From IMG/VR virus record IMGVR_UViG_3300039412_000320: a stretch of DNA of 64,000 nucleotides; one strand, written 5' to 3'. Numbering within the stretch: the stretch's first letter is position 1; each line of letters opens with the position of its first letter. The DNA comes from a virus. Made by a program: the position numbers and the translations under genes. This document shows, piece by piece, positions 19,407 through 35,791 of this stretch. The notes under the pieces are model-generated. The model ran no database searches. It saw nothing but the letters and a program-made list of their open reading frames with translations, and was not told where the DNA came from.

Positions 19407-20219
19407 ATGGTTCTAGTTCATCTATACCGGTATCCCCATCCGACTATCCCCAACCAGTGGCTTTATGTTGGTCAGGGAGTAAATCGGGATAAACAACACC
19501 GGTCCGGGGCATCATCCTTTGGTCGCCGATTTAGGAAGTTGTTTCCAGACACTCACCTCCCCGAGCCTGTTAGGTGGACTGAACCCGCCTCAAACCATCT
19601 TGAGGCCAATGAAGCAGAGACTATTGCTATGTTTAGATATCATACTTGGCGAGGGTATCAAGGAGGGATGAATCTGACATTACCCGGCACAAAAGATTAT
19701 GAACACTTAGGGAAAATTGGAGGAGCAGTAGTAGGTCGTATAACTAAGGAAAACGGTACTGGACTTTTCCGTCTTACATCGGAACAATTAAGCCAAGCGG
19801 GGCGTAAAGGTGGACTTATTGGAATTCGCAATATGCCCCGAGAAGCGAAGGTTCGTGGTGGTAAAACTTCGGGTCCAGATAACTTAAAAAAGATGACAAA
19901 AGAAGCAAAAATACGAGGTTGTTACCTTGGTGGTAAATCTTCCGGTTCAATTTCAGGTAAACGATGTAAAGAAAACGGTCATCTAGCAAAAATCTGTCAC
20001 CTTGGGGGGTTAATTCGGGGTCCTATTCAGGGTAGAAAGAATGTAGAAAGCGGACTTCTATCCCGTATTTGTGCGGATGGAGGAAGGATTAGTGGTAGAA
20101 AAATGGCGAAGGTTCCCGGCTATATGTCAGGACTTGGTCGTATTAGTGCTTGCTTACGTTGGAGGATTCCTCGTGGCAGACCTTGTACTTGTGGAAAACA
20201 CTTGCCGCCTGAAACCTAG
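19407..20219 (+). CDS. degenerate GIY-YIG-like protein sharing the C-terminal GG-repeat and RGRPCTCGKH module with the GIY-YIG paralogs
   Basis: 'LYRY...WLYVGQG...YQGGMN'; 'CLRWRIPRGRPCTCGKH'. Confidence 0.55.
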   Translation: MVLVHLYRYPHPTIPNQWLYVGQGVNRDKQHRSGASSFGRRFRKLFPDTHLPEPVRWTEPASNHLEANEAETIAMFRYHTWRGYQGGMNLTLPGTKDYEHLGKIGGAVVGRITKENGTGLFRLTSEQLSQAGRKGGLIGIRNMPREAKVRGGKTSGPDNLKKMTKEAKIRGCYLGGKSSGSISGKRCKENGHLAKICHLGGLIRGPIQGRKNVESGLLSRICADGGRISGRKMAKVPGYMSGLGRISACLRWRIPRGRPCTCGKHLPPET

Positions 20220-20230
20220 TATTATTCCTT

Positions 20231-21007
20231 ATGGGTGTTCGATTCAGGCCGGGAGTATCAATTAGTGGGTATCCTCCCATCACACAACTTCTCCTTAAAA
20301 AATCATCCAAACCCTTCAACATTCTTGTCGGTGAGGACCATTTTCAAATACGTTTCGCCGAACACATCCTTGACCTAAAACACCGTATTGTAGAGAGCGT
20401 TGTCGATGCGGACCTCTTAACGGGAGAACCCTGTCTTTTGTGTGTCACGACCATCCGGGTCGTGGACATTTCCGAAAAAGTCAAAGACAAAACAGCCATT
20501 TGGTCTATCGGACCTTTGGAAAAAGGGAGTCCGGGAGCAATGGCAATCGTGAAATATGCTGTTTCTATTTTGAAAAAGGAAGTGCCTGACAAAGATACCT
20601 TAAAGAAGATTGCTGATGCTCTTACCCAAGAGGGCATCGAAGACATCCCTATTGCCATCTGGAACGCCGTGGGGTTACTCTCAGGACCGGCCCCCGGCGA
20701 GTATGTACGCTGGCTGGAGCCGTGGGAAAGCCATCGAAGCTGGCTCCGCCCGGAGGTAGACCCCGGATACCGGCTAAACACCCTTTTCCGGGACCTGTCG
20801 GCTTATGCCTTCATTAGTGCAGGCGAGGAGGAGAGCCTCAAGAAGGCCGGGCTATTCCTGTCGCCCTCTAAGCTTAAGTACCTGTCAAACCTTAAGCTGG
20901 ATTCCGTGCGGGTGCATAATACGCTCCGGGAATTGTCCCAATGGCGTATCAAACGCCCGGACCCATATCCTTGTGTATTGAAGATTTCGGCCATATGGCA
21001 ACCGTGA
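20231..21007 (+). CDS. hypothetical protein
   Basis: ATG directly after 'TAGTATTATTCCTT'. Confidence 0.5.
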   Translation: MGVRFRPGVSISGYPPITQLLLKKSSKPFNILVGEDHFQIRFAEHILDLKHRIVESVVDADLLTGEPCLLCVTTIRVVDISEKVKDKTAIWSIGPLEKGSPGAMAIVKYAVSILKKEVPDKDTLKKIADALTQEGIEDIPIAIWNAVGLLSGPAPGEYVRWLEPWESHRSWLRPEVDPGYRLNTLFRDLSAYAFISAGEEESLKKAGLFLSPSKLKYLSNLKLDSVRVHNTLRELSQWRIKRPDPYPCVLKISAIWQP

Positions 21008-21046
21008 AAAAACAACTTTCTATCCCTTAATCAGGAGGAAGTTGTT

Positions 21047-21742
21047 ATGTTCATTTATCTGATTGTTAATCATGATATCGGCAAATATTATGCCGGTCAA
21101 CATAAGGGGAATAATCTTAAAAAGTATCTTCAACAGAAATTTAACCATGCTCAAAGGGGGATTTCTGGCCAATCTTACCTTTATAATTCAATGCGGGCAC
21201 ACCCAGACTCCAAGGTCTGGTCCATTCATGCCCTTCGTTCGGATATCCAAACAAAAGAAGAGCTTAACGAAACCGAGAGGGATTTTATCAAATTTCTGCG
21301 GTCACAAGACCCCGAGTATGGGTACAACATTTGTCGGGGCGGAGAAGGATTCACCGGACCGCATACGGAGGAGACTCGAAAAAGGATATCTCACATTGTT
21401 AAAAATGCATGGAAGACCCCGGAAAAGCGAAAAAATATGCAGTGTAATGGTAATCATCAGTCTCGTGAAGTTAGGGTTCGTAACGGTCAAAAATTAGGTA
21501 AGTGGGGTGTGGAAACCGGGCACCTATTAAAGATTTCTTCACTTGGTTCTCTCGCACAACCTCGTGAGGACAAAGTGAGGGCAGGAAAAATTGGTATTCA
21601 GAGAGGACTTTTGAAACGGACCAAAGAACAAATGACCCTTGATGGTAAGAAAGGGGGATTGTTGGGAGGAAAAATCTCTTGTTGCAAACGTTGGAATATT
21701 GACCGTGGGAAACCGTGTGTTTGTGGAAAGCACCTAAAATAG
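21047..21742 (+). CDS. GIY-YIG homing endonuclease (paralog family A)
   Basis: 'MFIYLIVNHDIGKYYAGQHKG'; 'CKRWNIDRGKPCVCGKH'; class A motif at 21014-21038. Confidence 0.8.
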   Translation: MFIYLIVNHDIGKYYAGQHKGNNLKKYLQQKFNHAQRGISGQSYLYNSMRAHPDSKVWSIHALRSDIQTKEELNETERDFIKFLRSQDPEYGYNICRGGEGFTGPHTEETRKRISHIVKNAWKTPEKRKNMQCNGNHQSREVRVRNGQKLGKWGVETGHLLKISSLGSLAQPREDKVRAGKIGIQRGLLKRTKEQMTLDGKKGGLLGGKISCCKRWNIDRGKPCVCGKHLK

Positions 21743-21756
21743 AATTTTATAAAAAA

Positions 21757-22140
21757 ATGAGTATTATATCTCGTGGAAAGGAAGTCATGGGAAGTTCTCG
21801 CATAGGGCTTGAAATCCTAATTGAAAAAGTCAGGCACTCTTTGGGTGTGAGGAAGAATAAAGCAAGGGAAATTGTCTTTGCCGTCGCCTCCTGCCTCGAA
21901 GAAACCCTTAAGGATAACCTCGGTACTGATGGGTTTTCCCTCAAGCTTCACAGTTTCGGAAAGTTCACCGTCCGGCATAGGGCGGCGAGCCTACGGAAAA
22001 TTCCCCTCACGGGGAAAGTCAGCATGACGAGTGAAAAACACAAAATCAAATTTGTCTCACTGGGAGAGTTGCGCAAGCTGGAGAAAGTCAAGCCCCTGCC
22101 CGCTGCCCCCCCGATTTCTTTACCAATGCAGACCGGTTAA
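21757..22140 (+). CDS. HU/IHF-like DNA-binding protein
   Basis: 'FGKFTVRHRAASLRKIPLTGKVSMTSEKHKIKFVSLGELRK' matches the HU arm/beta region. Confidence 0.6.
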   Translation: MSIISRGKEVMGSSRIGLEILIEKVRHSLGVRKNKAREIVFAVASCLEETLKDNLGTDGFSLKLHSFGKFTVRHRAASLRKIPLTGKVSMTSEKHKIKFVSLGELRKLEKVKPLPAAPPISLPMQTG

Positions 22141-22224
22141 TGTTCCAAGAGCCGGTTCAGTGGCTTGGTAACTGAAAGCTTTCTTTACCAACTCAAATCG
22201 TTTAATCTTTAGGAGGATTACAAC

Positions 22225-23199
22225 ATGAAGCAGTTCGCAGATGATGAATTGACCGACTTAGTACCACCCACTTCCCCCGTTCAACAAGCAGCAGCACCTC
22301 CCCCTCCCGCCGCTCCTGCTCCGCAGGCTCCGCCGCCCCCCGTGGCAACGGCAGCGCCAGCGCCCGTATTCACTGCACCAGCACCGGCACCTGTATTCAC
22401 CGCTCCCCTTCAAACCGCCAAAGTAAGTTCCATTGAAGACCTAGACCTTCCCGGCACCGCAGGGACAGCAATCGCCGCAGCGCCCACCTTTGCCGCCACA
22501 CCCGGCACGGAGTTGGTCGGACGGGCTATTGACTTTGACAACGCCGAACCGTTGAAGACGGGAGATGGATTGAGCCGCATCCGCCCGGCGAAGGGCAGTG
22601 GGAAGCCGTCTCGTTTCGCTTTAATCGGACCCCCGCCTTACGGCCCCGGTATCGCTCCTCGTGCCGCCCGCAGTCACTACGTTCCCACCAAAGATGGCAA
22701 GCGGAATTGCATTTGCCTCGCCGATGGCACTAATGACGTTGGACTCTGCTGCACCAAGTTGCAGGAAGAGGGCCGGACGCACATCATCCACCTCGCCCTC
22801 GAATACACCAACTGCAACCCCACCAACGGCAACTACCCGAAGGGGTACACTGGTCCAATCGAATGGAGGATTGGTTTCGTTGACCTCTCCCCCTCTCAGT
22901 TTAACACGTTGAAGGACAAGCCGCAAGAGGGTAAGTCCGTCTACGATTACGACTACGTGATGGTCATGAACGGCAACCGCTACGACTTCAACATCAAGTC
23001 GCCGGTCGCCCGCTGGAAGCTTGACCCCGAAGTGGTCAAGGCCGTTACCGAAGCGGTTCAACCCTTTGTCCGGGACGGCGGCGTGAAGCTTGCCAAGCGC
23101 CTCGGTACGAAGAAGTCTATTCTCGAATGGAAAGCGCTCCTCTCCGGTGTCGCCGTGGGAGCCGCTGAGGCCAGTCTGGACGATGTGGAAAGCATTTAA
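22225..23199 (+). CDS. hypothetical protein with Pro/Ala-rich N-terminus (possible virion protein)
   Basis: Strong SD AGGAGG; PPPP/APAP low-complexity region then a globular domain. Confidence 0.55.
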   Translation: MKQFADDELTDLVPPTSPVQQAAAPPPPAAPAPQAPPPPVATAAPAPVFTAPAPAPVFTAPLQTAKVSSIEDLDLPGTAGTAIAAAPTFAATPGTELVGRAIDFDNAEPLKTGDGLSRIRPAKGSGKPSRFALIGPPPYGPGIAPRAARSHYVPTKDGKRNCICLADGTNDVGLCCTKLQEEGRTHIIHLALEYTNCNPTNGNYPKGYTGPIEWRIGFVDLSPSQFNTLKDKPQEGKSVYDYDYVMVMNGNRYDFNIKSPVARWKLDPEVVKAVTEAVQPFVRDGGVKLAKRLGTKKSILEWKALLSGVAVGAAEASLDDVESI

Positions 23200-23337
23200 C
23201 AACCTGTTCGGTTGGGGGGAGCCAATCTCCCCCCAGCTAGAACAGCAAGATCTTGAACCCGAGGAGGAAAGCATGACGTATTCTGACCTTGAGCTTGGAG
23301 ATATCGTTTTTTGGAAAGCGGCGGACCGCCCAGGACG

Positions 23338-23451
23338 GTGACGAACATCTGCAATAACACTATTACAACGGCGTGGTTTGATGAAGAGTACACTCTCCAC
23401 ACCGTCATTGTCGTTGCCGAAGCTTTAACGTTCGATGACCCCAACGATTGA
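23338..23451 (+). CDS. possible 37-aa small ORF (GTG start) not in the ORF track
   Basis: Protein-like translation 'TNICNNTITTAWFDEEYTLHTVIVVAEALTFDDPND'; AGGA 4 nt upstream. Confidence 0.2.
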   Translation: MTNICNNTITTAWFDEEYTLHTVIVVAEALTFDDPND

Positions 23452-23475
23452 TTAAGTACCTCAAAGGAAGGACTT

Positions 23476-23754
23476 ATGGCTATCAAATATCTGGACCCCA
23501 AGCTCCTCGTGAGCGAGGGCTACTTACAGGAAGCCAACCGGCAGTTTTTCCACCCGCTTGGCATGGCTCTCGAAGTTAACCCGCAGACCGGAGAAATCAA
23601 GGTGTGGGATTACCGGGATGACCCTGAGGGTATCAACTTCTCCGAAAAGGTGGATTTGAAACCCAAGGCGGAAGCTGTTCTCAACCTCGAAGCCACCAAG
23701 TACGCCTCTCGCAAGAAGGCACTTGGTTATTGGGTGCAACCGGTGGTGTCGTGA
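23476..23754 (+). CDS. hypothetical protein
   Basis: SD 'AAGGAAGG' upstream. Confidence 0.5.
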   Translation: MAIKYLDPKLLVSEGYLQEANRQFFHPLGMALEVNPQTGEIKVWDYRDDPEGINFSEKVDLKPKAEAVLNLEATKYASRKKALGYWVQPVVS

Positions 23755-24695
23755 GGACTCCCAAGGAAATCATCTTGAGGTTCCCGGAAGCCTTGCCGGA
23801 CGTGGACCATTGGCTTGTCATGGGGTTGGACCCCAGCCTCTCCCGCACCGGGTATGCGATGATGCATGTCATCCTGCCCGAAGACCCCCACAAAGGCCAA
23901 CCCTGTAAGCATCCCGGATGTCTCAGCCATGTATCCCACCCTTGTGAGGAATGCGGACGCACGGCGGGCATGTTCGGTACCTACGCTGATTGGACACAGG
24001 TGGGCAGTGTCAAGCCGGATTCTTCCAAAGACCCCATTTGGATTCGCAGCAAGGGTATCTCCCTGTTCCTCAAGGAACGTCTCAGTGAAGCGGCCACAAC
24101 CATCAAGTTCGAGGATTTTCTTGCCATAAACAATGGGCAGCCCAGCGTCACTCCCATTCATACCATGGGTCTGCTCATTGCCACGGAGCATCCCACGCCG
24201 ACCAACGATTACCTTGTGGCATTGAACCGTATTATGCATCTTGTTCTGTTCGATGGAGACTTGTGGAAGAAGTTTGCCGTGGTAAAGATTCTCTCCATCA
24301 ATGCCAGCACCTTGCGTAGCCTCATGGGCCTGTCCCAGCGGGGAACTACCAATAAGAAAGAGAACATCCTCAAGGCTTACGAGTTTATTGACAAGACCCG
24401 GTTTCCGGCTCTGGACCCTGATTCCTGTGACGCCGTTCTGTTGGCGATGATGGGGCGGTATGTATCCAGCATATTGCTCGGTCGGCCTCGTGAAATCCCG
24501 GAGAGGGTCCTCCAGTCACTTTGCAACTCCGCCCAAATCTCCAAGGGCAAGGGGCGTAATCAACATTTCGTAACGGCAGGAGTTTTGCATCGTCCTGAGT
24601 ATTTCTATGAGTATCAAAAATTAACTTTCAAATTCTTGAGTAGGGATGCAAGCTCAACGGAACGAAAACTCGATGTGTGTGAGTACCAAATCTAA
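23751..24695 (+). CDS. RuvC-like Holliday junction resolvase with Zn-ribbon insertion
   Basis: 'LVMGLDPSLSRTGYAMM' and 'DSCDAVLLAMMG' are RuvC-like; inserted 'CKHPGCLSHVSHPCEECG'. Start uncertain (GTG 23751 or TTG 23730). Confidence 0.5.
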   Translation: MRTPKEIILRFPEALPDVDHWLVMGLDPSLSRTGYAMMHVILPEDPHKGQPCKHPGCLSHVSHPCEECGRTAGMFGTYADWTQVGSVKPDSSKDPIWIRSKGISLFLKERLSEAATTIKFEDFLAINNGQPSVTPIHTMGLLIATEHPTPTNDYLVALNRIMHLVLFDGDLWKKFAVVKILSINASTLRSLMGLSQRGTTNKKENILKAYEFIDKTRFPALDPDSCDAVLLAMMGRYVSSILLGRPREIPERVLQSLCNSAQISKGKGRNQHFVTAGVLHRPEYFYEYQKLTFKFLSRDASSTERKLDVCEYQI

Positions 24696-25410
24696 GGCCC
24701 GTCATTTGGTTGGGAAAACATTTGGGTTGTGGTTTGTCATATCTTACAAAGGTCGGGGAGTTTATCAATGCCGATGTAGATGTGGAACTGAGAAACCGGT
24801 ATACGGTTCCAATCTTACTCAAAAGAAAACTGGGAGTTGCGGGTGTGTACCTTTTCCCACCAGAAAAGCATGGAATTTCAAAGACCTTTCCGGTAAAAGG
24901 TTTGGTTTTTTGGAGGTACAAGAACTAGACCATGTTGAAAAAAACCGGGTTTTTTGGAAGTGCCTGTGTGTTTGTGGAAAGATTTTACCTGTAAGTACCA
25001 ATAATTTATCCCGCACTACTAGTTGTGGGTGTCGGCGCTATGCCAATCTTTTAGAACCCAAAGAGTTTCTGAGTGGACGGGTATACCGTGAGTATAAGAC
25101 CAGTGCTAAGTCTAGGGGATTGAAATGGGGGCTAGAGAAAGAATTATTCTTGAGTTTAATTTTTCAACCCTGCCATTATTGTGGAGCACCCCCCAGCAAT
25201 GAAGCGGTTACCCGTCGTCTTTACAATAATGGAAAGCTGCCCTACAATGGGATTGATAGGAAAGATATCCATAAGGGATATATTCCGGGCAATGTAGTTC
25301 CTTGTTGTCGTATATGTAATTGGGCAAAACAACAACTTTCCTATGAAGAGTTTTTGAATCATATAAGAAAAATGGCAGTTCATCTCAGTATTCTATCACA
25401 GGAGGAATAA
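24646..25410 (+). CDS. HNH homing endonuclease
   Basis: 'CHYCGAPPS...YNGIDRKDIHKGYIPGNVVPCCRICNWAK'; class A motif at 24623-24645. Confidence 0.8.
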   Translation: MQAQRNENSMCVSTKSKARHLVGKTFGLWFVISYKGRGVYQCRCRCGTEKPVYGSNLTQKKTGSCGCVPFPTRKAWNFKDLSGKRFGFLEVQELDHVEKNRVFWKCLCVCGKILPVSTNNLSRTTSCGCRRYANLLEPKEFLSGRVYREYKTSAKSRGLKWGLEKELFLSLIFQPCHYCGAPPSNEAVTRRLYNNGKLPYNGIDRKDIHKGYIPGNVVPCCRICNWAKQQLSYEEFLNHIRKMAVHLSILSQEE

Positions 25411-26747
25411 TGGCAAAGGCAGCCGCAAAGAAGAAGAAGGAAAAGGAACTCAATTTTGAAATGCCGACTGGCAGTCCCCGGACTTGGACGGTGGAACAGC
25501 GGCGTAATGCCCTTGCTTACTTGCGCAAGGATACGAAGTCCGACCATCGTATCTACGGCAAGGACTTTCAGGAAATCCTTGTTCCCTATGGTCACTTCGT
25601 CTTTGACAAGGTTCTACGGCTCGGCGGTATCGCCCGAGGCGGACGCATTACGCAGATACACGGCAATGAGGGCGCTGGCAAGACCACCACTGCCTTTGTA
25701 AACGCCGCCAATTACCAGCAAGCAACCGGTGAACCCATCGCTATCTTCGAGTACGAACCGGCCATTAGCGCCCAGTACGCTTACGCTCTCGGTGTTGACC
25801 CCGACCTCTGTTTCTTCGAGCAGCCGTCCAACTTGCAAGAGTCCATCAAGCGGCATATTCAGCTTCTCACCAAATATGGTATCCGCTACTTCGTGGATGA
25901 CTCCATCCCGTTCATGCAGATGAAGGTGGAGCTTAAGGATATTGAAAGCGGCAAAGCATTCCGGGCTAACTACGGAAGCCATGCTAAGGGCATCACCACG
26001 TTCTACAAGTTTCTCACTCCTCACCTTATGGAGCAGGATGCCCACCTGACCATCATTAACCAGACTCGTGCCCGTATGGACGACGATGCGGAGAACGCTT
26101 CCCACTGGAGTTACACTAACCGGGAATACAGCCTGCCGGGCGGATATATGGCGAGGTTTGCTCCCAGCGTGATGCTGGAACTCATTCTGGAAACGGAAAT
26201 CAAGCCGTGGAGTTGGGATAAGATGCCGGACAAAAAAGAACAGTGGCTTCTCATCCAGCCCATGGGTGAAGTGCTCAAAAACTACCCGACCGCTAACAAG
26301 GTCCGGGTTCGCTCCCTCAAGAACAAGGTGACGGGCGGCGGCTACCGGGAAGCCTTCGTCTACGTCAGGCCCAACTTCGGCATTGACGAGAACATGAGCA
26401 TCCGGGAGCTTGCCTGCGGGTATGGCTTCATTGAGTACGACAAAAAGAAGTGGTTTGTCGGCAAGTCCGCCGACGACGCCATCATCACCTATGCCAGCAA
26501 AACAGAGCTTGTCGAAGACCTCGTTATCAAGCAAAACCCGGAGGTTCTCGGGAAGCTCAAGGGCATGGTTTTGGATGCCGTGGAGCACGATGAAACCGAG
26601 CGCTTCAAGGGTGAAGGTCTCAGTGAAGCGGAAAAGGCATTCCTCGAAGAGCCAGCGGGGAGCTACCCCGATGAGGAAGATTTTGGTGAAGTCCCCACCG
26701 CAGAATCTCTTGAAAATGCAGTAACAGAGATAGACGAACTTAAGTGA
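25410..26747 (+). CDS. RecA/UvsX-like recombinase
   Basis: 'LGGIARGGRITQIHGNEGAGKTTTAF' is a RecA-type Walker A; SD GGAGG. Confidence 0.7.
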   Translation: MAKAAAKKKKEKELNFEMPTGSPRTWTVEQRRNALAYLRKDTKSDHRIYGKDFQEILVPYGHFVFDKVLRLGGIARGGRITQIHGNEGAGKTTTAFVNAANYQQATGEPIAIFEYEPAISAQYAYALGVDPDLCFFEQPSNLQESIKRHIQLLTKYGIRYFVDDSIPFMQMKVELKDIESGKAFRANYGSHAKGITTFYKFLTPHLMEQDAHLTIINQTRARMDDDAENASHWSYTNREYSLPGGYMARFAPSVMLELILETEIKPWSWDKMPDKKEQWLLIQPMGEVLKNYPTANKVRVRSLKNKVTGGGYREAFVYVRPNFGIDENMSIRELACGYGFIEYDKKKWFVGKSADDAIITYASKTELVEDLVIKQNPEVLGKLKGMVLDAVEHDETERFKGEGLSEAEKAFLEEPAGSYPDEEDFGEVPTAESLENAVTEIDELK

Positions 26748-26753
26748 GGTGGC

Positions 26754-27059
26754 GTGGCTCTTTTTATTTTACTGTTTTTGGTCCTTGTAGTTCTTAATAT
26801 CTCTGATGGGATAACTACCTATATGGGACTTAAGAAAACGGAAAATGAGGAGGTAAACCCCATTGCATCTTGGTTGATGTGTAAAATCGGCAGTATTCCT
26901 GGAATTATTGTGGTGAAGGTCTTAGCCTTAAGCACCATTGCGGCTGGGATTTTCATTGTCGGTGTGAGGGGTGCCCCAGGGGTGGATATCACACTTTCTA
27001 TCCTGATAGCAGTTTACATTTGGGTTGTCGTTCATAACATCAAGGTTATTTACAAATGA
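26754..27059 (+). CDS. small integral membrane protein (3 predicted TM helices)
   Basis: Hydrophobic segments; stop/start overlap (ATGA) with the next gene. Confidence 0.5.
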   Translation: MALFILLFLVLVVLNISDGITTYMGLKKTENEEVNPIASWLMCKIGSIPGIIVVKVLALSTIAAGIFIVGVRGAPGVDITLSILIAVYIWVVVHNIKVIYK

Positions 27060-29326
27060 AACTATCCGGTAAGAATTTTCAACCATGGAAAGATTTCTCC
27101 CTTATTGTGGACGGGTTGACATTGATTGTCGGACCGTCGAATAAGGGTAAGTGTCTTGCTCCAAATACTCCTGTTCTTATGTATGACGGGACAAATAAAT
27201 TAGCAAAGAACATAGGTGTAGGTGACTTTCTTATGGGGCCGGATAGCACGCCTCGCACCGTTCTTAGTATTTCCCACGGGTTTGATGATATGTATGAGGT
27301 TTTGCCCAATAAAGGGGGCTTCGATGGTTCTTGGGGGTGTAATCAGTATCACATTTTGTCCTTGATTTGCCGATTAGATGGAAAAAAACGTCGTCTCAGT
27401 CCCTTACAGTTAAGACAATGCAGGGTGGAGATTTCAGTTAAGGACTTTCTTTCCAAAAGTGCTACCTATAAACGGAATGCCCGTTTGCATCGTTCGGGAG
27501 GTATAGATTTTAAGTGCCGGGTAGATAAAAAATTTGAACCTTATTTGGTGGGCTATTGGCTTGGCGATGGTACCACCGATTTACATAAATTAGAAGTAAC
27601 AACCGCCGACCTTGAGGTTGTAAACTATTGTCGAAAACTTGCCACCAAGTATGGTCTCCATCTTATACCCAATGATGATGATTCCTACCGATTTTCTACT
27701 AAACATAAAGGAAGTCGAAGTAATGCCCTTCTTAACCGTTTCCGGTTGTTAAAGTTGGTGGATGCAGACGGAAAATGCATACCACATAGCTATCTGGTTG
27801 GCTCAAGGGAAGATAGACTTTTACTATTGGCTGGGTTGCTAGATTCTGATGCTGGATTAGAACCGTCTCAATTTGCCTTTTGTTCGCAGTTTGAGCGACT
27901 TGCTAAACAAGTGGCATTTTTAGCGAGGTCTCTCGGGTTTAGGGCATCTATTTCTCCTAAGTTAAACAAACGATACAATAAGATATACCATACGGTTTTA
28001 ATTTTCGGGAATTTGCCTAGTATTCCTACTATCATAAAGCGAAAAAAGGCATTATCGCAATCCAAAAAATCTTGTTTAACAACGGGGTTTAAAATAAAGC
28101 ATAAAGGGTGGGGAGAATATTTCGGATTTGAGTTGAGCGGGGATGGGCTTTTTCTTCTTGGTGATTTTACTATAACTCATAATAGCTCCATCTTCCGTGC
28201 CCTGCGGGGGGTATTCCGCAATGAACTCCCGCAGGATTTTGTCCGTAATGGACAGGATGAGAAGATGGAAGTGACTCTTGAGGTTGAGGGTGTCAACGAC
28301 CCCATCAGGGCCACCCGGACCCGCAAGGGTTCCACCAAGTACGCCATTGGTGAAGATGAAAAGGGTAAGCCGATAGAGTATAAGGCTCTCGGCGATAGTG
28401 TCCCCGAACCCATGAAGGTGCTCAAGTATGGCACCGTCAAAGTGGGGGACACAACCATAGACCCCATCTTTTCTCAACAGAACAAGGCACAATTCCTCAT
28501 TGACCCCGACGCATGGAAGCCCAACGACCTGAATGCCATCCTTGGGGCCTTTGCCTCTACCGAAAAATTGGATGCAGGGAAGAAGGAAGCCAACCGGCGC
28601 ATTACCGAAAAGAACGGGGAAGCCCGAACGCTCGCCGAAGAAATCCGTGAGGCAGAGGAACGCCGGGGTAAACTTGAGAGGTTTAATGCCTCGGCACAGG
28701 ACTCCGCCCACACCGTGTCTGGTTATGAGGCAAAGGTCAACAGCTATGAGTCATTGTTGGCCTCGCTGACCGAGACACTTACAAGGACGAATCGGATAGC
28801 GAAGATGCGGTCCTTCATCCTCAAGCTGTCTGTGCCGGATGTATCCCCCATTGAGAAACAGGAGCGCCTCGCCCGGATGTATGCCGAGGCGGTAAAAATC
28901 CTCCGTCGCCGGGAAGTCACGGGACAGGTGGTACATGGCATTGACAATACTATAGTCCAGTGGGACCTTGTGGCTAAGGGGTACAAACGCAAGCAGGCGG
29001 TTCTATCCCTGTTGGAAATTGTCGAAAGAAAGGGAGCAAGCCCCAAGGAGTGCGGGGAGAAGTTAGAGGGTGTGCTACAAGAAGCCAACTTCCTACTCGG
29101 AGTCATTGCTCACTACCTCTCGGCGCTTAAGAACATCAACTTGTTGGCAGAGGCATTGAAGCTCCCCAGCAAGAAGAGTGAGCTTAAGTTTACGGAAGAG
29201 GAACTGGACGCCGCTAACGCCAAGGTTAACTCTTTGACGTTGCTTCTGTCCAAGGAATCCAAACCGAAATGCCCGGACTGTGGTACGGAGCTATGCTGCC
29301 CGTCTTGTCAACCGGAATCGAGGTAG
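27056..29326 (+). CDS. SMC/SbcC/RecF-family P-loop ATPase N-terminal half + coiled coil, interrupted by an intein
   Basis: Extein 'MKLSGKNF..LTLIVGPSNKGK|SSIFRALRGVF' gives an SbcC/gp46-like N-terminus; long coiled coil; ends 'CPDCGTELCCPSCQ'; no signature/Walker B region. Confidence 0.55.
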   Translation: MKLSGKNFQPWKDFSLIVDGLTLIVGPSNKGKCLAPNTPVLMYDGTNKLAKNIGVGDFLMGPDSTPRTVLSISHGFDDMYEVLPNKGGFDGSWGCNQYHILSLICRLDGKKRRLSPLQLRQCRVEISVKDFLSKSATYKRNARLHRSGGIDFKCRVDKKFEPYLVGYWLGDGTTDLHKLEVTTADLEVVNYCRKLATKYGLHLIPNDDDSYRFSTKHKGSRSNALLNRFRLLKLVDADGKCIPHSYLVGSREDRLLLLAGLLDSDAGLEPSQFAFCSQFERLAKQVAFLARSLGFRASISPKLNKRYNKIYHTVLIFGNLPSIPTIIKRKKALSQSKKSCLTTGFKIKHKGWGEYFGFELSGDGLFLLGDFTITHNSSIFRALRGVFRNELPQDFVRNGQDEKMEVTLEVEGVNDPIRATRTRKGSTKYAIGEDEKGKPIEYKALGDSVPEPMKVLKYGTVKVGDTTIDPIFSQQNKAQFLIDPDAWKPNDLNAILGAFASTEKLDAGKKEANRRITEKNGEARTLAEEIREAEERRGKLERFNASAQDSAHTVSGYEAKVNSYESLLASLTETLTRTNRIAKMRSFILKLSVPDVSPIEKQERLARMYAEAVKILRRREVTGQVVHGIDNTIVQWDLVAKGYKRKQAVLSLLEIVERKGASPKECGEKLEGVLQEANFLLGVIAHYLSALKNINLLAEALKLPSKKSELKFTEEELDAANAKVNSLTLLLSKESKPKCPDCGTELCCPSCQPESR
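27152..28183 (+). mobile_element. Intein (344 aa) with LAGLIDADG homing endonuclease domain inserted in the Walker A P-loop
   Basis: Begins 'CLAPNTPVLMYDG', ends 'ITHN' followed by Ser; DOD motifs 'LVGYWLGDGT' and 'LLAGLLDSDAG'. Confidence 0.8.
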
Positions 29327-29328
29327 AT

Positions 29329-29925
29329 ATGGGAAAACTTGAGGGCGCTGATTTTCGGGATAAGGATTATGATGCATATGATAACCCCGGAAAATCTGCC
29401 TTAATTGAATTCCTGTCCCAACGGGAAATCTGGGCAAAAAAACTCCGTGAAGTTGGACTTGGCGATGTTCAGGTTTATCTAGGACCACGTCATCCCGAGG
29501 GTAAGTGGGTGACGGGGGATGTGGAAATTAGAGATGAAAAGCGGAGCGACAATCCGTGGGTGATGCACAACGGTCACCCTTGCTTCAAACACAACACAGT
29601 TTCCATATTTGACAGACGGAAAGACTCCCCGGCGCTCTTTCAGTTTAGTTTCTCTCTTGATGGTTTGAATGCATACACTGTCCTTACGGAGGATGTCCCA
29701 AAGGGGAAGTATTTTCTTGCAGATTTCAGTTATCGTAAGGAGGATGCTTCACGTCACATCTCCTTTAGGCTGGCCCTGATGTTTCATCGGGGTTCTCGCC
29801 AAGACCTTTGGAAGTTATGCGATGGTACATGCTGGGGGACCTTTTTATGCGAAGATGATATTGACCCCACCCCCCATCAAATTCGACTGTTGAATATACT
29901 CAAATTTGAGTGGATTAGACCTTAA
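29329..29925 (+). CDS. hypothetical protein
   Basis: ATG preceded by GAGGTAGAT; the track's earlier start overlaps the upstream gene. Confidence 0.5.
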   Translation: MGKLEGADFRDKDYDAYDNPGKSALIEFLSQREIWAKKLREVGLGDVQVYLGPRHPEGKWVTGDVEIRDEKRSDNPWVMHNGHPCFKHNTVSIFDRRKDSPALFQFSFSLDGLNAYTVLTEDVPKGKYFLADFSYRKEDASRHISFRLALMFHRGSRQDLWKLCDGTCWGTFLCEDDIDPTPHQIRLLNILKFEWIRP

Positions 29926-29964
29926 AGGTCCAGCCGGAATTAGTATTATAGTGAGGAGGATTAC

Positions 29965-30261
29965 ATGCCCGACATCCAAGAACAGTTGCGCACTGCTCAA
30001 GCAAGAGTGAAAACCTTGGCAGGCAAACGAGACCAGCTTAACCGGGAAGTGGGGGTTGAGGAGCAGAAGCTCAAGCAGGTCCATGATAACCTCCGGGCAC
30101 TTAACATCAGCAACCCCGAGCGTCTGTCGGTGGAGGAGCTTAAGAAGCTCGCCGAGGATACCCAGTTGGAGTTGGAAAAGAACCTGAGTAGCCTCATGGC
30201 CTCCCTTGAGAACGGTGAGTCTTTGCTCAAAGACTACGAACAATTTCAACAGGCACAGTAA
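29965..30261 (+). CDS. small coiled-coil protein
   Basis: Class B motif + SD GAGGAGG upstream; heptad-rich. Confidence 0.5.
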   Translation: MPDIQEQLRTAQARVKTLAGKRDQLNREVGVEEQKLKQVHDNLRALNISNPERLSVEELKKLAEDTQLELEKNLSSLMASLENGESLLKDYEQFQQAQ

Positions 30262-30941
30262 TGGAAAATGAACAGCTTCCGGCAATCGAAGAGCTTGTCG
30301 GGCAGGAGGTTAGTCTTGAGCGGGATGCCGTTCAAAACTTCTATCGTAGCTCATATGGGGGCATCAATCCTGACCGGTGGGAACGAGCCAACAACGAAAT
30401 CCCGTTTCAGGATGTCGTAGCGGAGCTTACCGGTCATCGTGATACGGTCATCCGCTGCCCCTTTCATGGTCGTGACCGCACGCCGTCTTTTACCCTCTAT
30501 TCCCGCACCAATGACGCTTATTGCTTTGGATGTCCGCCCGGCAGCATGTTGTATGACAATGTAACCTTTGTATCCAAGTATATGGAACTCAGCCGGGTGC
30601 AGGCTCTTTACTGGCTGGAAAAAACCTTCAACCTTCCCTCCATACCTAATATGCTGGTTGACGACGAGGAAGAAGAGGGTGGTGTTTTAAGCTTCTGGGA
30701 CCTTGCGGAGCACTTTATTTTGAAGGCGCAACGAGATGTTCAGGAAACCAAGGATGCGGAGCTTGCCGAAGACTACATCCGCATCTACTTCACTGGGTTG
30801 ACGCTGGAAAAGAGCGCCAAGGATGCGGAGAGGAGCGATGAGGTAGACCCACAGGAGTTGCACTTGCAAGCCACGGTAGGGCTTGCCGAAGTGCTGGGCA
30901 AGGAAGAGTTGACGGCAATCGCCGATGGAAAGGTAATTTAA
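30261..30941 (+). CDS. CHC2 zinc-finger protein (DnaG primase N-terminal-like), no TOPRIM domain
   Basis: 'CPFHGRDRTPSFTLYSRTNDAYCFGCPPGS'. Confidence 0.6.
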   Translation: MENEQLPAIEELVGQEVSLERDAVQNFYRSSYGGINPDRWERANNEIPFQDVVAELTGHRDTVIRCPFHGRDRTPSFTLYSRTNDAYCFGCPPGSMLYDNVTFVSKYMELSRVQALYWLEKTFNLPSIPNMLVDDEEEEGGVLSFWDLAEHFILKAQRDVQETKDAELAEDYIRIYFTGLTLEKSAKDAERSDEVDPQELHLQATVGLAEVLGKEELTAIADGKVI

Positions 30942-30958
30942 GGAGTACTATATAGAGC

Positions 30959-33900
30959 ATGGCAAAGGTTAAGAAAGAAAAAGTCACCACCGACGATTTG
31001 AAGAAGGTTAAGAAGAAGAAAGTCGTCAAGCTCCGGGACATTCGCACCATGTTCCGGGAGATTCTTGCCGAGCTTTCCGCTGGCGGTGGTGTAGCCAAAG
31101 TCAAAAAAGACTGGATGAGTAAGAAGGCGTTCGAGATTGTCGATACGCCCGAAGCCCTACAGAAGTGGGTTGACGAGGTTCTCACCAATGCTCCCCGCTT
31201 TGAGTTTTACGGGGTCACCGAACCAGTTGTGGCTTTGGATACGGAAGACGTGAGCCTTGACACCCGGCTCTTTATCAGGATGGTGAAGCTGCCTGATGGC
31301 TCCTACCACCAAGAGTATGAAATCAAGACCGATATTTCCGGCATCTGTCTCTCTGCCGATGGTGTCAAGGGCATATACATCCCCATCACCCATGAGTTTC
31401 AGGACCTTGCTCTCACCACCCCGGCCCGCAACATAGACCGCAGGATATGCGCTGAGATTCTCCAGCCGTTCTTCAATCAGGTACACCTTGTTTTTTACAA
31501 TGGGAAATTCGACCGGGAAGTCATGCGCCTCACCATGGGCATTGTCTTTCGTCCTTATCCTCACTTTGAAGATGTGCAGGTTTTGCAATACATTGATGAC
31601 CCCAAAGCTGACATGGAAGACAAGCAGTTCTATACGGGGGATAGCGGCGGCTTGAAGGCGTTGTCCAGCAACCTGCTGGGTATTGAGCAAATCGAGCTTG
31701 AGGAAATCGCCAAGGTCAAGGCGGATACTTGTCCCCACAATGGCTCTCCTTTCTGCTCCTGCACGTTGGAGCAGAAGAAAGAGAATAAGCACGGGCTTAA
31801 GCAGCACTTTGTTCCTTTCAGTTGGATACCCGTAGACATCGCTCTCTATTACGCCGCCTCTGATGCCATTTGTACTTGGCTTCTATGGGAAAAGCTCCAT
31901 CCCCTTGCCCGGACCCGCAAGACCGTGCATCGCATCGACCATGAGCTTGTTGACTCTATCACTTGGATTGAACGGCAGCGGTTCCTTATCGACACCGACC
32001 GTCATACTCGCACTGTCAAAGGGCACCAACGGGTTCTCGCTCAATTTCAGAAGAAACTGTATGACCTTGCCATAGCGGCTGGGTACAAAGAGAATGCCAC
32101 TGATGACGGTGTGGTGTTACCTCATGACCGTTTTAATCCCGATTCCAATGACGACCTGCGCATACTTTTCTTTGATGTCAAAGGATATGCTCCCCTCAAG
32201 ATGACGGATGGTGGGAAGAGCGGCGTGAAGAAAGCCTCGTGTGATGCCGAGGTGGTGGAAGACCTCCACAAGCTGCACCCGGAGGATGAGTTCCTCGAAG
32301 TATTCTCAGACTACAAGAGCTACATCTCCCTACACCCTTCCAGCCTCCACTATGACCCGAGTGATGGCACCGCCCGCATATACCTCAAGCAGAATGTGGT
32401 CTCCGGGGGACGCCTGTCTTCCGCTGGCGGTGACTTTTACAAGGATGGTGGGTTCGGTCTTAACAGCCAAGCTGTGAAAAAGGTGGAAGGTTATTTGATG
32501 TGGAAAGTGACGGGAAATGTCCTCATTCCCGATGAGATTCCCGAAGACCAGATAGAACCCCACACCGAGGAAGAGCTTCACCCTTCATGTTTCAGGGAGA
32601 TGGAAGAGAGTTACATCGTTGAAGAGCACGATGAGGAAGTAGCGGCGGAGCCAGCCGGGGATTGGGTTGATGGTAAGCCCCGTTCCACGATTAAACACGT
32701 CGTTACCATGGGCAAGCGCAAGGTCAAAAAGCGGGCTCCCGGTATTATCCATAATCATATGGGTCAGTACATGGGTTATACCGTTTGTCTGGTGCCGGGC
32801 TGTCAGACCTGCAAAGATAAGTTTGGCTTCCTTATTGAGAACGGTAAGATTGATGCCAACCAGAGAGTCAATCTCCGCTGCTTGTTCTACTCGCCGCCCG
32901 GATGGACATTCTTCACCGTTGACTACGGCAATATCGAAATGCGTGCCGCCGCCAACTGCTCGGGTGAGCCGGAATTCATCAATGAGTTTTTGCATGGCAA
33001 GGGTGACTTCCACTCCCTCACTGCTAGCAAGGTCTTCCCGGAGTTCTCCGACTCCAAGAGTCCTAACTACCGTGCTAAGCACCTGCGTGACTTGGCAAAA
33101 ATCATCAATTTTGCACTTTTATACGGCGGTATCGCCTACACCATTTACGAGAACATGAAGAAGCAGGACCCCAACATCACCTTCCAACGGTGCGAGGAAA
33201 TGGTGGAAAACTACTGGAAGGGCGTGCCGGTGTTCTTCGAGTTTTGCCAGCGCAAACAAGCAATTGCCCGAGACCAACTCATTTGCACCACCACTACGAA
33301 TCGAGTCATCAAGTTTGACTCCGCCATGAAGGCGCTACACATTCATGTCCCGAACGAGGAGGAAAAGAAGAACCTATGGCAGTATCGGGATTACATGAAA
33401 AAGTCGAAGGAGCTTAGGGAAGCTGATGACCCCCGGTGGAAAGAGTATCTCAACCTTGCCAACTCCATGTGGAAGAACCCCGACACTGGCGTTCGCAATA
33501 CCATGGACTACAGCAAGTTCATGGGCAAGATTCAGCGGGTCAGCGTTAATGCCCCCATTCAAGGACTCTGCGGGGATTTCATGCGGATGTCTCTCAACAA
33601 GATTCGCCAGTGGGTTGAAGCAGACCCGCTTATTGCAACCATCTTCATGTTGCATTGTTCGGTTCACGATGAAATCGACTTTTCCGTGAAGAATGAATAC
33701 GTGCCTTTCGTTCTCCCCCGTATCACTCGCATGATGAAGTTGCGCAAGCTGCACCAGATTATGAAGTGGCAGGTGCCCATCGAAGCGGATGCTGAATATG
33801 GATCCAGTTGGGACGTTGAACACCATGTGACCGGTGATGATGACCACATCCCCGCCGCTTGGACAAGGGTATCCGGTATGGACAGGTACCTCCCCGGCGA

Positions 33901-34654
33901 GTGGGATAGTGCGACTATCAAGAACCTGATAAAAGCCATCTCTTCGCAGGTGGAAGCTCGGGTCGAAAAGGCAAAAGCCTTCCTCAAGGAAAACCTGCAC
34001 GAGCGGGCCTTCCAAGCGGCTTGGTGGTGCTTCAACAAGAAGAAGGGGAAGAAAGAAGTCGTACTTCAGACCGACCCCAAGGAAATCCAGCGGGCGCTCA
34101 TAGCGGCTATTCAGCTTGATGAATTCTGGCGTATTGACAATATGCCCGACGAGGATGATGCGAAGTTGGAGACCTTGGAACAGTACGAAACTCGGATGGG
34201 CCTTGGACCGGCTGACCGTAACCCGGCAGCTTTGATATATGGACCTCTCGGTTCTCTGCCCTTAGACGCTCCGGTGAAACGCTATGTCCCCGAACCCCTG
34301 AAAGTGGAGATTTCGTGGAATTCACCACAGGAAGCGTCAGAAGGGGTTGGGGGTACCCAAGGTACCCTCAATCTGTTCGTCGCAGCGGAGAACCTCCCTG
34401 TAGCCCCGCCAGAACCCACTGTAGCTCCCCCCGTGGTAGATTCCACCCCCCAAGTACCGGAAACCAAGGGACCCCCTCCCGGTGTAACCGTGTACGATAT
34501 CTCCGGGGCCGACCAGCTTACCCTTATGCAAATCGACATCACTCTGGGTAAGGGGGACAAGTCCGTATGGGTGCTTCATGATGGCATACGGATGTGCCTT
34601 CATGACCGAGCCATGGACTCCGTTCCCGAACATTACCTCAAGAAACCTGCCTAA
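30959..34654 (+). CDS. Family A DNA polymerase with 3'-5' exonuclease domain and ~330-aa C-terminal extension
   Basis: Exo motifs 'ALDTEDVSLD', 'YNGKFD', 'YYAASDA'; motif A 'DYGNIEMRAAAN', motif B 'RAKHLRDLAKIINFALLYG', motif C 'HCSVHDEIDF'; Pro-rich tail. Confidence 0.85.
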   Translation: MAKVKKEKVTTDDLKKVKKKKVVKLRDIRTMFREILAELSAGGGVAKVKKDWMSKKAFEIVDTPEALQKWVDEVLTNAPRFEFYGVTEPVVALDTEDVSLDTRLFIRMVKLPDGSYHQEYEIKTDISGICLSADGVKGIYIPITHEFQDLALTTPARNIDRRICAEILQPFFNQVHLVFYNGKFDREVMRLTMGIVFRPYPHFEDVQVLQYIDDPKADMEDKQFYTGDSGGLKALSSNLLGIEQIELEEIAKVKADTCPHNGSPFCSCTLEQKKENKHGLKQHFVPFSWIPVDIALYYAASDAICTWLLWEKLHPLARTRKTVHRIDHELVDSITWIERQRFLIDTDRHTRTVKGHQRVLAQFQKKLYDLAIAAGYKENATDDGVVLPHDRFNPDSNDDLRILFFDVKGYAPLKMTDGGKSGVKKASCDAEVVEDLHKLHPEDEFLEVFSDYKSYISLHPSSLHYDPSDGTARIYLKQNVVSGGRLSSAGGDFYKDGGFGLNSQAVKKVEGYLMWKVTGNVLIPDEIPEDQIEPHTEEELHPSCFREMEESYIVEEHDEEVAAEPAGDWVDGKPRSTIKHVVTMGKRKVKKRAPGIIHNHMGQYMGYTVCLVPGCQTCKDKFGFLIENGKIDANQRVNLRCLFYSPPGWTFFTVDYGNIEMRAAANCSGEPEFINEFLHGKGDFHSLTASKVFPEFSDSKSPNYRAKHLRDLAKIINFALLYGGIAYTIYENMKKQDPNITFQRCEEMVENYWKGVPVFFEFCQRKQAIARDQLICTTTTNRVIKFDSAMKALHIHVPNEEEKKNLWQYRDYMKKSKELREADDPRWKEYLNLANSMWKNPDTGVRNTMDYSKFMGKIQRVSVNAPIQGLCGDFMRMSLNKIRQWVEADPLIATIFMLHCSVHDEIDFSVKNEYVPFVLPRITRMMKLRKLHQIMKWQVPIEADAEYGSSWDVEHHVTGDDDHIPAAWTRVSGMDRYLPGEWDSATIKNLIKAISSQVEARVEKAKAFLKENLHERAFQAAWWCFNKKKGKKEVVLQTDPKEIQRALIAAIQLDEFWRIDNMPDEDDAKLETLEQYETRMGLGPADRNPAALIYGPLGSLPLDAPVKRYVPEPLKVEISWNSPQEASEGVGGTQGTLNLFVAAENLPVAPPEPTVAPPVVDSTPQVPETKGPPPGVTVYDISGADQLTLMQIDITLGKGDKSVWVLHDGIRMCLHDRAMDSVPEHYLKKPA

Positions 34655-34690
34655 TAAACCACCTATCGTTCTCTTCTATAGGGGGAGACC

Positions 34691-35119
34691 ATGGGTAGAC
34701 TTCGATTATTCAATGATAAGGAAAAGTGGTGTTCCGCTTGTACATCATGGCTCCCATTGGATGCTTTTTCAAAATTGAAGAGAGAACCTTCCGGTAGAGC
34801 AACCTATTGTCGGCTCTGCAAAAAGAAAAAAAATCAAAAATGGGGGTATAAACATCAGAAAAAGTATACCCATAATCACCTCTATGGGATTACACTGGAA
34901 GAACGAGAAATCTTGTGGGAAAAACAAAATAGATGCTGCGGGATATGTAAAGAACCCATCCCCGTGCAAGGGAATAAAAGTCATTTAGACCATAACCACG
35001 ACACTGGAAAAGTTAGAGGACTTCTTTGCCCAACCTGCAATATGGGAATAGGTCTTTTAGGTGAAGGAAGGTTTCTTATTGCCGCTATCCAATACTTAGA
35101 GAAGGCAGAATGCACATGA
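34691..35119 (+). CDS. Endonuclease VII-family (T4 gp49-like) HNH nuclease
   Basis: 'HLDHNHDTGKVRGLLCPTCNMGIGLLGE'. Confidence 0.7.
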   Translation: MGRLRLFNDKEKWCSACTSWLPLDAFSKLKREPSGRATYCRLCKKKKNQKWGYKHQKKYTHNHLYGITLEEREILWEKQNRCCGICKEPIPVQGNKSHLDHNHDTGKVRGLLCPTCNMGIGLLGEGRFLIAAIQYLEKAECT

Positions 35120-35757
35120 CCAAGAAATGCACGAAATGCGGAAGCTCTTACTACGGCGACCATCACAGGTGCGCTCACTCTCCCGTCAGGACTTTTAAGA
35201 CCCGAAAACAGATGGGATTGAAGGAGGGGGAACTCCCCTTCAAATTCCGAGCAGAGTTGGATGTTAAGGAGGATGGTGAGACGGAAGTAGTTCAAAAGAG
35301 AGCACTTCTTCGGCTAAACTCCCAACGGGTCTATTCTCAGATGGGGTGTGCCGTGCAAGCGTTAAACTCCATGAAGGAGTCGGCGAAGTGGCTCTCCCGG
35401 CTGCTTGACAACATGGACGAGGAGGACAAAACTGACATTTCTCCCGTTCTCGCCATGGTGGGAACCTCCCTATATGGTCTGGAGCAGCTTTCCGCCCAGA
35501 AAGTCAAATATGCCGTGCAGATGGAGGAATTACTCGAAAAGGAGCGGCGTAAGGCTCGCACCGTGCGGATGAGGATAGCCAAGGAGTCTGTGGATAAACG
35601 TAAGAAAAATAATGAGTTTGGAATTCTAAGAGCCGGAAGTCCGACGTTGGAGATGTTGCCAGTTGGCCTCGATAACGAGGTCATTTTGGAGCATTTTAGG
35701 CTACTTCCCAGAAACAGCGAGGCGGTGGATAGACCCACGGAAGAGCCGAAATCGTAA
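35110..35757 (+). CDS. hypothetical protein
   Basis: Overlapping start; N-terminus 'CTKCGSSYYGDHHRC'. Confidence 0.45.
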   Translation: MHMTKKCTKCGSSYYGDHHRCAHSPVRTFKTRKQMGLKEGELPFKFRAELDVKEDGETEVVQKRALLRLNSQRVYSQMGCAVQALNSMKESAKWLSRLLDNMDEEDKTDISPVLAMVGTSLYGLEQLSAQKVKYAVQMEELLEKERRKARTVRMRIAKESVDKRKKNNEFGILRAGSPTLEMLPVGLDNEVILEHFRLLPRNSEAVDRPTEEPKS

Positions 35758-35791
35758 TTTTTCCGCTTTCTATCCCCTTTATTGAGGACTT

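Follow-up and report, generated by a model that had tools for sequence, protein, structure and literature searches.

Positions 27056..29326 of the 64,000-nucleotide viral sequence analysed here (IMG/VR record IMGVR_UViG_3300039412_000320; the whole stretch is referred to below as the window) encode the front half of a jumbo-phage ATPase of the SbcC/Rad50 type. This open reading frame (ORF) very probably provides one chain, the N-terminal one, of an enzyme built from two, of which the C-terminal chain is the product of a separate gene located about 17 kb downstream in the same strain. The two chains are called the N-half and the C-half in what follows. A large clade of jumbo phages, including the cultured Tunturiibacter phage Tunturi_5, appears to run SbcC from two such genes lying far apart.

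An N-terminal lobe interrupted by an intein

An earlier note, made from the letters of the window alone, described the ORF as an SbcC-like N-terminal half that ends at a hook-like cysteine motif, and Pfam, PHROG, fold and the terminal CPDCG..CCPSC motif all agree with that description. The gene is organised as follows (aa, amino acids):

27056..29326, + strand: N-half ORF, 756 aa, composed of a 412-aa extein and a 344-aa intein
27056..27151, + strand: N-extein, aa 1-32, first beta-hairpin and Walker A through GPSNKGK
27152..28183, + strand: intein, residues 33-376, 344 aa, Hint and LAGLIDADG homing endonuclease (Pfam)
28184..29326 (stop included), + strand: C-extein, extein aa 33-412, remainder of the N-lobe, predicted helices and putative zinc motif
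29270..29308, + strand: C-terminal Cys motif CPDCGTELCCPSC, extein C395, C398, C403/C404 and C407

By sequence, the 344-aa insert is a LAGLIDADG-type intein, with Hint ends, a +1 nucleophile, an endonuclease and a precise absence in orthologues. Its first residue is Cys (C33), its end is His-Asn (HN376) and Ser (S377) follows; the Pfam matches are PF05203 Hom_end_hint (2e-15), PF14528 LAGLIDADG_3 (2e-9) and PF05204 Hom_end (6e-6). The insertion site lies between Lys32 and Ser33 of the Walker A loop and separates GPSNKGK from S, so that the +1 nucleophile is the Walker A Ser itself; the motif GPSNKGKS is reconstituted once the intein is spliced out. The borders of the intein are fixed because an intein-less relative, P0001 (412 aa, 97% identical), has neither more nor less than the extein residues: it aligns with residues 1-32 and 377-756 of the window protein with none in between, its own residues 1-32 matching extein aa 1-32. 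Exactly these 344 residues are missing from P0001 and from every other homologue. The intein removal assumed in the earlier note is thereby borne out, and the extein, put there at about 410 aa, measures 412. The closest inteins, 35-38% identical, reside in the P-loops of helicase or terminase genes of Klebsiella and Salmonella phages.

Once spliced, the 412-aa extein groups with the N-lobes of Rad50/SMC proteins both by sequence and by fold. Pfam AAA_23 matches residues 2-192 (E 2e-8), AAA_15 matches as well, and PHROG 16465 ('exonuclease') and PHROG 77 ('SbcC-like') cover the N-lobe only. The C-extein contains the Q-loop region (DPIFSQQNKAQFL) and about 230 helical residues with an invariant L-P-D turn (P250), and the protein ends in KPKCPDCGTELCCPSCQPESR, directly followed by the stop codon. 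An AlphaFold2 model built from a 27-sequence alignment (predicted local distance difference test, pLDDT, 72; predicted template-modelling score, pTM, 0.31) shows a beta-rich N-lobe followed by helices, placed, with a pTM of only 0.31, at 160-246, 253-313, 319-357 and 360-389. When this model is compared with the PDB using Foldseek, it retrieves 5h66_A, 3qkr_A, 1ii8_A and 1f2t_A, which are the N-terminal chains of two-chain Rad50/SMC heads. At the profile level, the extein shows a weak match to the Rad50 hook structure 1l8d (E 0.06), and its distal helices and CPxCG motif match, also weakly, the CPMCG region of 9hqu (E 2e-4). Identity as an OLD or AAA_15-type ATPase, to which the best PDB sequence match (6p74) would point, was rejected: that match spans residues 2-68 only, i.e., the P-loop region, the extein has neither a Toprim domain nor a C-lobe, and its fold matches are to Rad50/SMC.

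The motifs of an ATP-binding cassette (ABC) C-lobe do not follow. No signature motif, Walker B or H-loop was found in the N-half ORF or in any frame downstream of 29326, a regular-expression scan of the window for LSGGE and Walker B gave no match, and Pfam scans of 30 further window ORFs detected no ABC C-lobe. With every filter disabled, the hidden Markov model (HMM) of the C-half family described below had no match in the six translated frames of the window, nor did tblastn with the Tunturi_5 C-half protein or the C-half HMM against the window and the N-half flanks. With frames, Pfam and HMM scans all negative, the earlier statement that no signature, Walker B, D-loop or H-loop follows the N-half or occurs elsewhere in the window holds.

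Half length as a family trait

The half length of the protein is a trait of the family and not a truncation. A profile search with the N-half, covering 1.84 billion representative proteins, returned 146 proteins (clusters at 50% identity) with E ≤ 1e-30, from jumbo-phage contigs. Among the 150 best listed matches, lengths fall at about 350-530 aa, save for shorter fragments and two longer, apparently intein-bearing entries; the alignments reach to within a few residues of the C-termini, nearly all of these proteins end at the Cys motif, and none is a full-length SbcC. Close homologues (n = 139) measure 385-488 aa, apart from one 302-aa fragment, and lie on contigs of up to 465 kb. In the alignment of N-halves (A1), the invariant positions are G26, G31, K32 and S33 of Walker A, Q131, P250 at the L-P-D helix break, a DPIF..Q..QF block, a GAF.STE.L..GK block and the first Cys of the terminal motif (C395), and C398 is conserved in at least 90% of sequences. 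A CxxC lies within the last 45 residues of 219 of 223 family members and a CPxCG in 175 of 223, with a median of 9 residues after the motif. A second HxC or CxxC pair is present in about half (113/223), and some N-halves, including that of Tunturi_5, have the single CxxC only.

The frameshift at 29326 that the earlier note had raised is excluded because the homologues, in 146 clusters, share this end point. Their common stop after the Cys motif makes it extremely improbable that the window gene derives, as a pseudogene, from a full-length sbcC through truncation or frameshift. Such an origin might be expected where homing endonucleases abound and at least one region is rearranged, as in the window, and where the N-half gene shares its 3′ end with a 218-aa ORF; against it, the frames downstream contain no ABC motif, and the downstream ORF is specific to the clade and matches no family.

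As a side observation, the arm of the N-half grows via internal duplication, with the C-half unchanged: the Tunturi_5 protein gp181 (L012 11995-13452) contains three tandem units of L-x-[IV]-P-[DE] plus a helix of about 35 residues, for one in the window protein, and the N-half P0009 contains a 75-residue duplication.

A family of C-terminal halves

A tblastn search of cultured phages with the extein identified Tunturi_5 (PP885688.1, 308,711 bp, complete), whose gp181, annotated 'exonuclease', is 485 aa long and 42.6% identical to the extein over residues 1-282. Reading of the whole Tunturi_5 genome revealed gp14, a 221-aa 'ATPase' in which a 55-residue helix precedes the motifs of a C-lobe: ETFGGGVANV (signature), FMVCDESFNNVS (Walker B) and LAVTHQ (H-loop). 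This protein belongs to a C-half family that numbers more than 300 members, 193-300 aa long and typically about 225 aa, with a common layout consisting of a helix of about 60 residues, a TFGGG signature, an hhhhDE Walker B and an H-loop. Residues G118, G119, D146, E147 and H180 (gp14 numbering) are invariant in alignment A2, and G121, G122, D149 and E150 (P0380 numbering) in the wider alignment A4; the H-loop His, invariant in A2, is not so in A4, where some clades have Gly or Gln instead. The ORF with a signature and a Walker B that the earlier note proposed to seek elsewhere in the genome is thus found, with TFGGG as its signature and not LSGGE.

Most C-halves go unrecognised by Pfam, and their PHROGs entry is 15167 ('ATPase'). 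The best PDB match of the C-half profile is Rad50 (3aux, E 4e-5), in which FGGG aligns with LSGGE, LDE with LDE and TH with TH. The C-half of the closest relatives of the window, P0380, was modelled with AlphaFold2 (pLDDT 86), and the model matches 3qkr_B (1.5e-8), 5h66_B, 1ii8_B, 1f2t_B and 1f2u_D (TM 0.73). The N-half and C-half models therefore match, respectively, the N-terminal and the C-terminal chains of shared crystal entries. Two detection attempts were less productive: scanning IMG/VR with one protein as query, the L112 C-half, returned the self-match only, and a degenerate DNA pattern designed for the C-half missed the closest relatives of the window because these have DESL and not DESF.

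Co-occurrence of the two halves

The two halves share contigs, at distances of 7-108 kb, and are never adjacent; no fused N+C form exists in the N-half clade. Three GenBank phage records carry both. In Tunturi_5, the N-half gp181 lies at 126,949-128,406 (−) and the C-half gp14 at 19,071-19,736 (+), the two halves of LR745208.1 (485 kb) are about 7.5 kb apart, and Microbacterium phage Magritte encodes an N-half as gp155 (350 aa) and a C-half as gp2 (216 aa). At least 14 IMG/VR contigs have both, 15-83 kb apart. N-half and C-half clusters also share their longest contig, as seen for P0001/P0380 (364,142) and P0002/P0471 (218,966), and for P0008/P0384, P0017/P0411, P0026/P0419, P0064/P0428 and P0027/P0196. 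Most contigs of at least 200 kb with one half have the other too.

Two JGI contigs tie these observations to the window. Ga0455670_0000114 (316,945 bp), whose N-half is 97% identical to that of the window, encodes it at 223,286-224,521 and, 17 kb downstream on that strand, a C-half at 205,664-206,332. Ga0427918_0001286 (52,109 bp), from the same strain as the window, encodes the identical intein-bearing 756-aa gene at 22,091-24,361 and, on the same strand and 16.9 kb downstream of it, a 223-aa C-half at 41,262-41,933 (L188 4506-5177). The proposal of the earlier note that a split Rad50/SbcC has its C-half elsewhere in the genome is supported by this 223-aa protein, which is 85% identical to P0380 and contains TTFGGGVQN, AIFLDESFNNING (with the FLDE Walker B) and LAITGQ. 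In this clade, Gly replaces the H-loop His (LAITGQ in L188 4506-5177, P0380 and P0470), and in other clades Gln does. Directly 3′ of the same-strain C-half gene lies a GIY-YIG/NUMOD3 homing endonuclease gene.

The 412-aa protein could instead be self-sufficient, as a nucleotide-binding protein or structural coiled coil of a distinct family, with the 225-aa protein serving another partner. That the genes are never adjacent, lie 7-108 kb apart and, in Tunturi_5, are on opposite strands would be in keeping with this, as would the failure of Pfam to recognise most C-halves and the fact that the constant companion of the N-half is a 98-aa helical protein and not the C-half. Yet the N-half keeps its Walker A and Q-loop residues invariant, while an ABC N-lobe by itself has neither catalytic base nor signature; the N-half and C-half models fit complementary chains in a shared set of Rad50/SMC head structures; most of the contigs of at least 200 kb with one half also contain the other; and the Tunturi_5 annotation offers no other ABC partner that is N-lobe-less or C-lobe-less. 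A self-sufficient protein is accordingly very unlikely, and the distinct ATPase family that the earlier note gave as its second option is not upheld, since sequence and fold place the N-half with Rad50/SMC N-lobes.

An 11.2-kb block skipped by the window

The C-half gene is missing from the window because its sequence jumps from one copy of a 169-bp repeat to the other and thereby drops 11.2 kb:

37715..37883, no strand: 169-bp repeat at which the window skips the C-half block; two copies in an intact same-strain contig

The repeat is perfect and direct, and its copies are 11,203 bp apart in the intact contig (L009 20660-20828, L188 7197-7365). This contig is Ga0427918_0001286, of which L009 is 100% identical to window 17056..37883 and L188 99.975% identical to window 37715..45871. 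Copy 1 lies inside an 852-aa portal-like gene and copy 2 is inserted in a '194-aa' gene; the window passes from the left flank of copy 1 to the right flank of copy 2, which creates a 717-aa fusion ORF (35792..37945). Besides the C-half gene and about ten small genes, the skipped block takes in a 1423-aa gene and the last part of the 852-aa gene.

Either recombination has deleted the block or the assembly has collapsed at the repeat, and we lean towards an artefact or a minority variant. If the deletion were natural, the phage of the window would truly lack a C-half, and its N-half would be non-functional or complemented only during co-infection. The collapsed junction with its fusion ORF does occur on three contigs, one of them (JGI 3300038423 Ga0427934_0000967) from another sample, and a perfect direct repeat of 169 bp is a substrate for UvsX-type recombination. 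A natural deletion is nevertheless rather unlikely. Both ends of the 338-kb MEGAHIT contig k141_400892 lie inside the repeat, at window 37855 and 37743, so that its termini overlap by 113 bp and imitate a circular genome or direct terminal repeat, the signature of an unresolved repeat; loss of the block would remove the end of the 852-aa portal-like gene and the 1423-aa gene; and three other same-strain contigs (L185, L188 and L191) are intact at the repeat. For the quality control of genomes, this case means that an internal 169-bp repeat can yield a false terminal overlap together with a contig that is silently short by 11 kb.

In the strain of the window, the '194-aa' gene is broken in three ways: by the 169-bp insert, by an in-frame TAG at about 37943-37945 (..GLIECP*CHQFQS..), where relatives read Gln, and by a downstream Endonuclease VII gene.

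A proposed two-chain machine

The following model is proposed for the pair, in which physical assembly, ATPase activity, zinc binding and the nuclease partner are all putative. The spliced 412-aa chain would give the Walker A loop, the Q-loop and nearly the whole helical arm, ending in a zinc-binding CPxCG, while the 223-aa chain would give a 60-residue helix, the TFGGG signature, the FLDE Walker B, the D-loop region and the H-loop. The chains would join as in engineered two-chain Rad50 heads, with the central beta-sheet completed across the chains and the helix of the C-half paired antiparallel with the first part, or base, of the N-half arm. Two such heterodimers would then sandwich two ATP molecules, Walker A of one facing the signature motif of the other. 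Together with an SbcD/Mre11-type nuclease, the complex would act on DNA ends and hairpins, inside a UvsX-dependent recombination/replication module.

The arm would be markedly asymmetric. The helix of the C-half is nearly constant, with a median of 61 residues ahead of the SANGIG block, and the helical region of the N-half extends over about 175-330 residues across members, so that most of the arm must come from the N-half alone. Mean-field direct-coupling analysis of about 200 N-halves gave block-like couplings at 244/245-255, at 198-203 with 291-294 and at 291/292-393. These may fit a fold-back at P250 and a C-terminus near W292, in columns that are nearly invariant and where alignment effects are likely. 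The arrangement could tentatively be an undescribed SMC-like architecture, in which the N-half folds back to form nearly the whole arm with its terminal zinc motif and the C-half supplies no more than a 60-residue stalk helix and the C-lobe; we would hesitate to favour this. In a folded-back arm, the zinc motif would no longer be a hook at the apex between two long helices; members with the CxxC only would have a terminal hook bridging two N-halves, and four-ligand members such as the window protein a cis zinc knuckle clasping the arm near the nick. The four-ligand Cys motif in cis is read as a clade elaboration of the single CPxCG at a free C-terminus. If true, the fold-back architecture would be a natural experiment on the need for the Rad50 arm and hook.

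Several points weigh against the two-chain model. The whole case for pairing the chains lies in their complementarity and co-occurrence. The arm cannot be a simple Rad50-like antiparallel pair with one helix from each chain. Replacement of the H-loop His by Gly in the clade of the window suggests slow or altered hydrolysis. If the 11.2-kb deletion is real, the genome of the window is left with an orphan N-half. Finally, the cognate SbcD lies outside the window and, in the closest relatives, about 130-150 kb from both halves.

Relation to known systems

In the accepted picture, Rad50/SbcC is one polypeptide: its two ends meet in the ATPase head, and its long arm and zinc hook relay conformational change in a manner that is still debated. 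The phage proteins resemble SbcC/Rad50 (E. coli SbcC, phage T4 gp46 and P. furiosus Rad50) in the Walker A and Q-loop of the N-lobe, in the signature, Walker B and H-loop of the C-lobe, in a predicted long helical insertion between the lobes that carries a CPxCG putative zinc motif, and in their genomic setting among recombination-module genes, with an SbcD-type nuclease adjoining in several relatives. They differ in that the lobes are separate polypeptides encoded 7-108 kb apart, and in that the break is off the symmetric apex, leaving about 175-330 helical residues on one side and a constant 60 or so on the other. Further differences are the position of the Cys motif at a free C-terminus, with four ligands in one chain in the clade of the window, the signature TFGGG in place of LSGGE/Q, and the change of the H-loop His to Gly or Gln in some clades.

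The closest structural counterparts are engineered two-chain Rad50/SMC heads (1F2T/1F2U, 1II8, 3QKR and 5H66), whose chains A and B are matched by the N-half and C-half models, so that a two-chain head is structurally feasible. The engineered two-chain Rad50 constructs of Hopfner et al. (2000) reportedly assemble and hydrolyse ATP. Unlike these laboratory truncations, from which the coiled coil is absent, the phage split is natural and clade-wide, with a long arm on one chain.

Phage genes in pieces are known from nrdA of Aeromonas phage Aeh1, which is split by a homing endonuclease gene. Both cases concern an essential enzyme encoded as two polypeptides that reassemble, as is proposed for the SbcC halves, in genomes rich in homing endonucleases. 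Here, in contrast to nrdA, the halves are separated by tens of kb of unrelated genes and not by a single inserted mobile gene, and the SbcC split is old, being common to at least 146 sequence clusters. A likeness to the defence ATPases Lamassu LmuB/DUF3732 (9hqu) and RloC is limited to the weak profile match at the CPxCG region of 9hqu. The host-encoded LmuB and RloC each unite both lobes in one chain and are coupled to an effector nuclease, whereas the phage split SbcC has no effector domain and belongs to a phage replication context.

A literature search for a naturally split Rad50/SbcC found no such description. The paper describing the Tunturi phages makes no mention of SbcC/SbcD, and the jumbo-phage survey of Iyer et al. 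reports SbcC-SbcD as near universal and does not mention a split (PMC7824862). Since the halves are labelled 'exonuclease' and 'ATPase' and the C-half escapes Pfam, annotation of these genomes would count SbcC as incomplete or missing. An asymmetric arm with a zinc motif at the chain end offers a natural system in which to test which covalent connections of the arm matter.

Neighbouring genes and the nuclease partner

The neighbourhood of the N-half gene and a more distant nuclease gene comprise the following features:

25410..26747, + strand: UvsX/RecA-like recombinase (Pfam RecA 5e-15, PHROG 97 3e-29)
29965..30261, + strand: 98-aa all-helical protein, candidate accessory subunit
55527..56906, − strand: calcineurin-type phosphoesterase ('exonuclease'), 459 aa (PHROG 284, E 3e-46)

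The uvsX gene is the conserved upstream neighbour of the N-half gene. A gene for a 101-aa DUF5658 membrane protein (26754-27059, +) stands between the two in the window and shares 4 nt with the N-half start; the 97% relative L001 lacks it, and there uvsX directly precedes the N-half. On the other side, the 98-aa protein follows the N-half gene in all clades examined (L001, L004, L006-L008 and Tunturi_5 gp180; 40-64% identical). It has no meaningful match in Pfam, PHROGs or the PDB, and may serve the split SbcC as an accessory subunit or act beside UvsX as a recombination mediator. Between it and the N-half lies a 198-218-aa ORF (29269-29925, +), which, when read from its first ATG, overlaps the N-half 3′ end by 58 nt; only the close relatives of the window have it, its place being taken in other clades by unrelated low-complexity proteins. 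This ORF in its 198-aa form (29329-29925) and the 98-aa protein were considered as the missing lobe and rejected, as they have no ABC motifs and no family match.

The earlier note had also pointed to an SbcD-like gene 26 kb away on the opposite strand. This gene, which spans 55527..56906, does lie on that strand and encodes phosphoesterase motifs (SDWHIG, GDWVSGD, GADNHG and GHWH, recognised by eye), with about 110 N-terminal residues outside the family profile match. It is not the syntenic SbcD ortholog and is probably not the cognate SbcD: the protein shows no BLAST similarity to Tunturi_5 gp177 or gp270 and no significant sequence match in the PDB. SbcD proteins of the gp177 type (Metallophos, 330-336 aa), 46-54% identical to each other, are encoded 1.5-4 kb downstream of the N-half in Tunturi_5 and L006-L008. 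In the closest relatives, the gp177-type ortholog is found at about 72.4-73.4 kb on the 316,945-bp contig, some 150 kb away from the N-half, at a position beyond the coverage of the window, which does not contain this ortholog.

Directly upstream of the phosphoesterase gene (−) lies an HNH/homing endonuclease gene (56946..58103, PHROG 12434). Elsewhere in the window, at least six GIY-YIG-like homing endonuclease paralogues start with MFIYLI(V/A/F)N (2121-2768, 8794-9672, 16013-16780, 21047-21742, 42156-42905 and 59652-60503); that at 42156-42905 has a Pfam NUMOD3 match and a sub-threshold GIY-YIG match, and the other five were recognised by eye only. Other free-standing endonuclease genes are located at 24646-25410, 34691-35119 and 38365-38955, several being of the HNH or Endonuclease VII type, and many of the homing endonuclease genes of the window are missing in its 97%-identical relatives. 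The 764-aa protein encoded at 6454-8748 (+) consists mostly of collagen-like G-x-x repeats and is probably a fibre protein.

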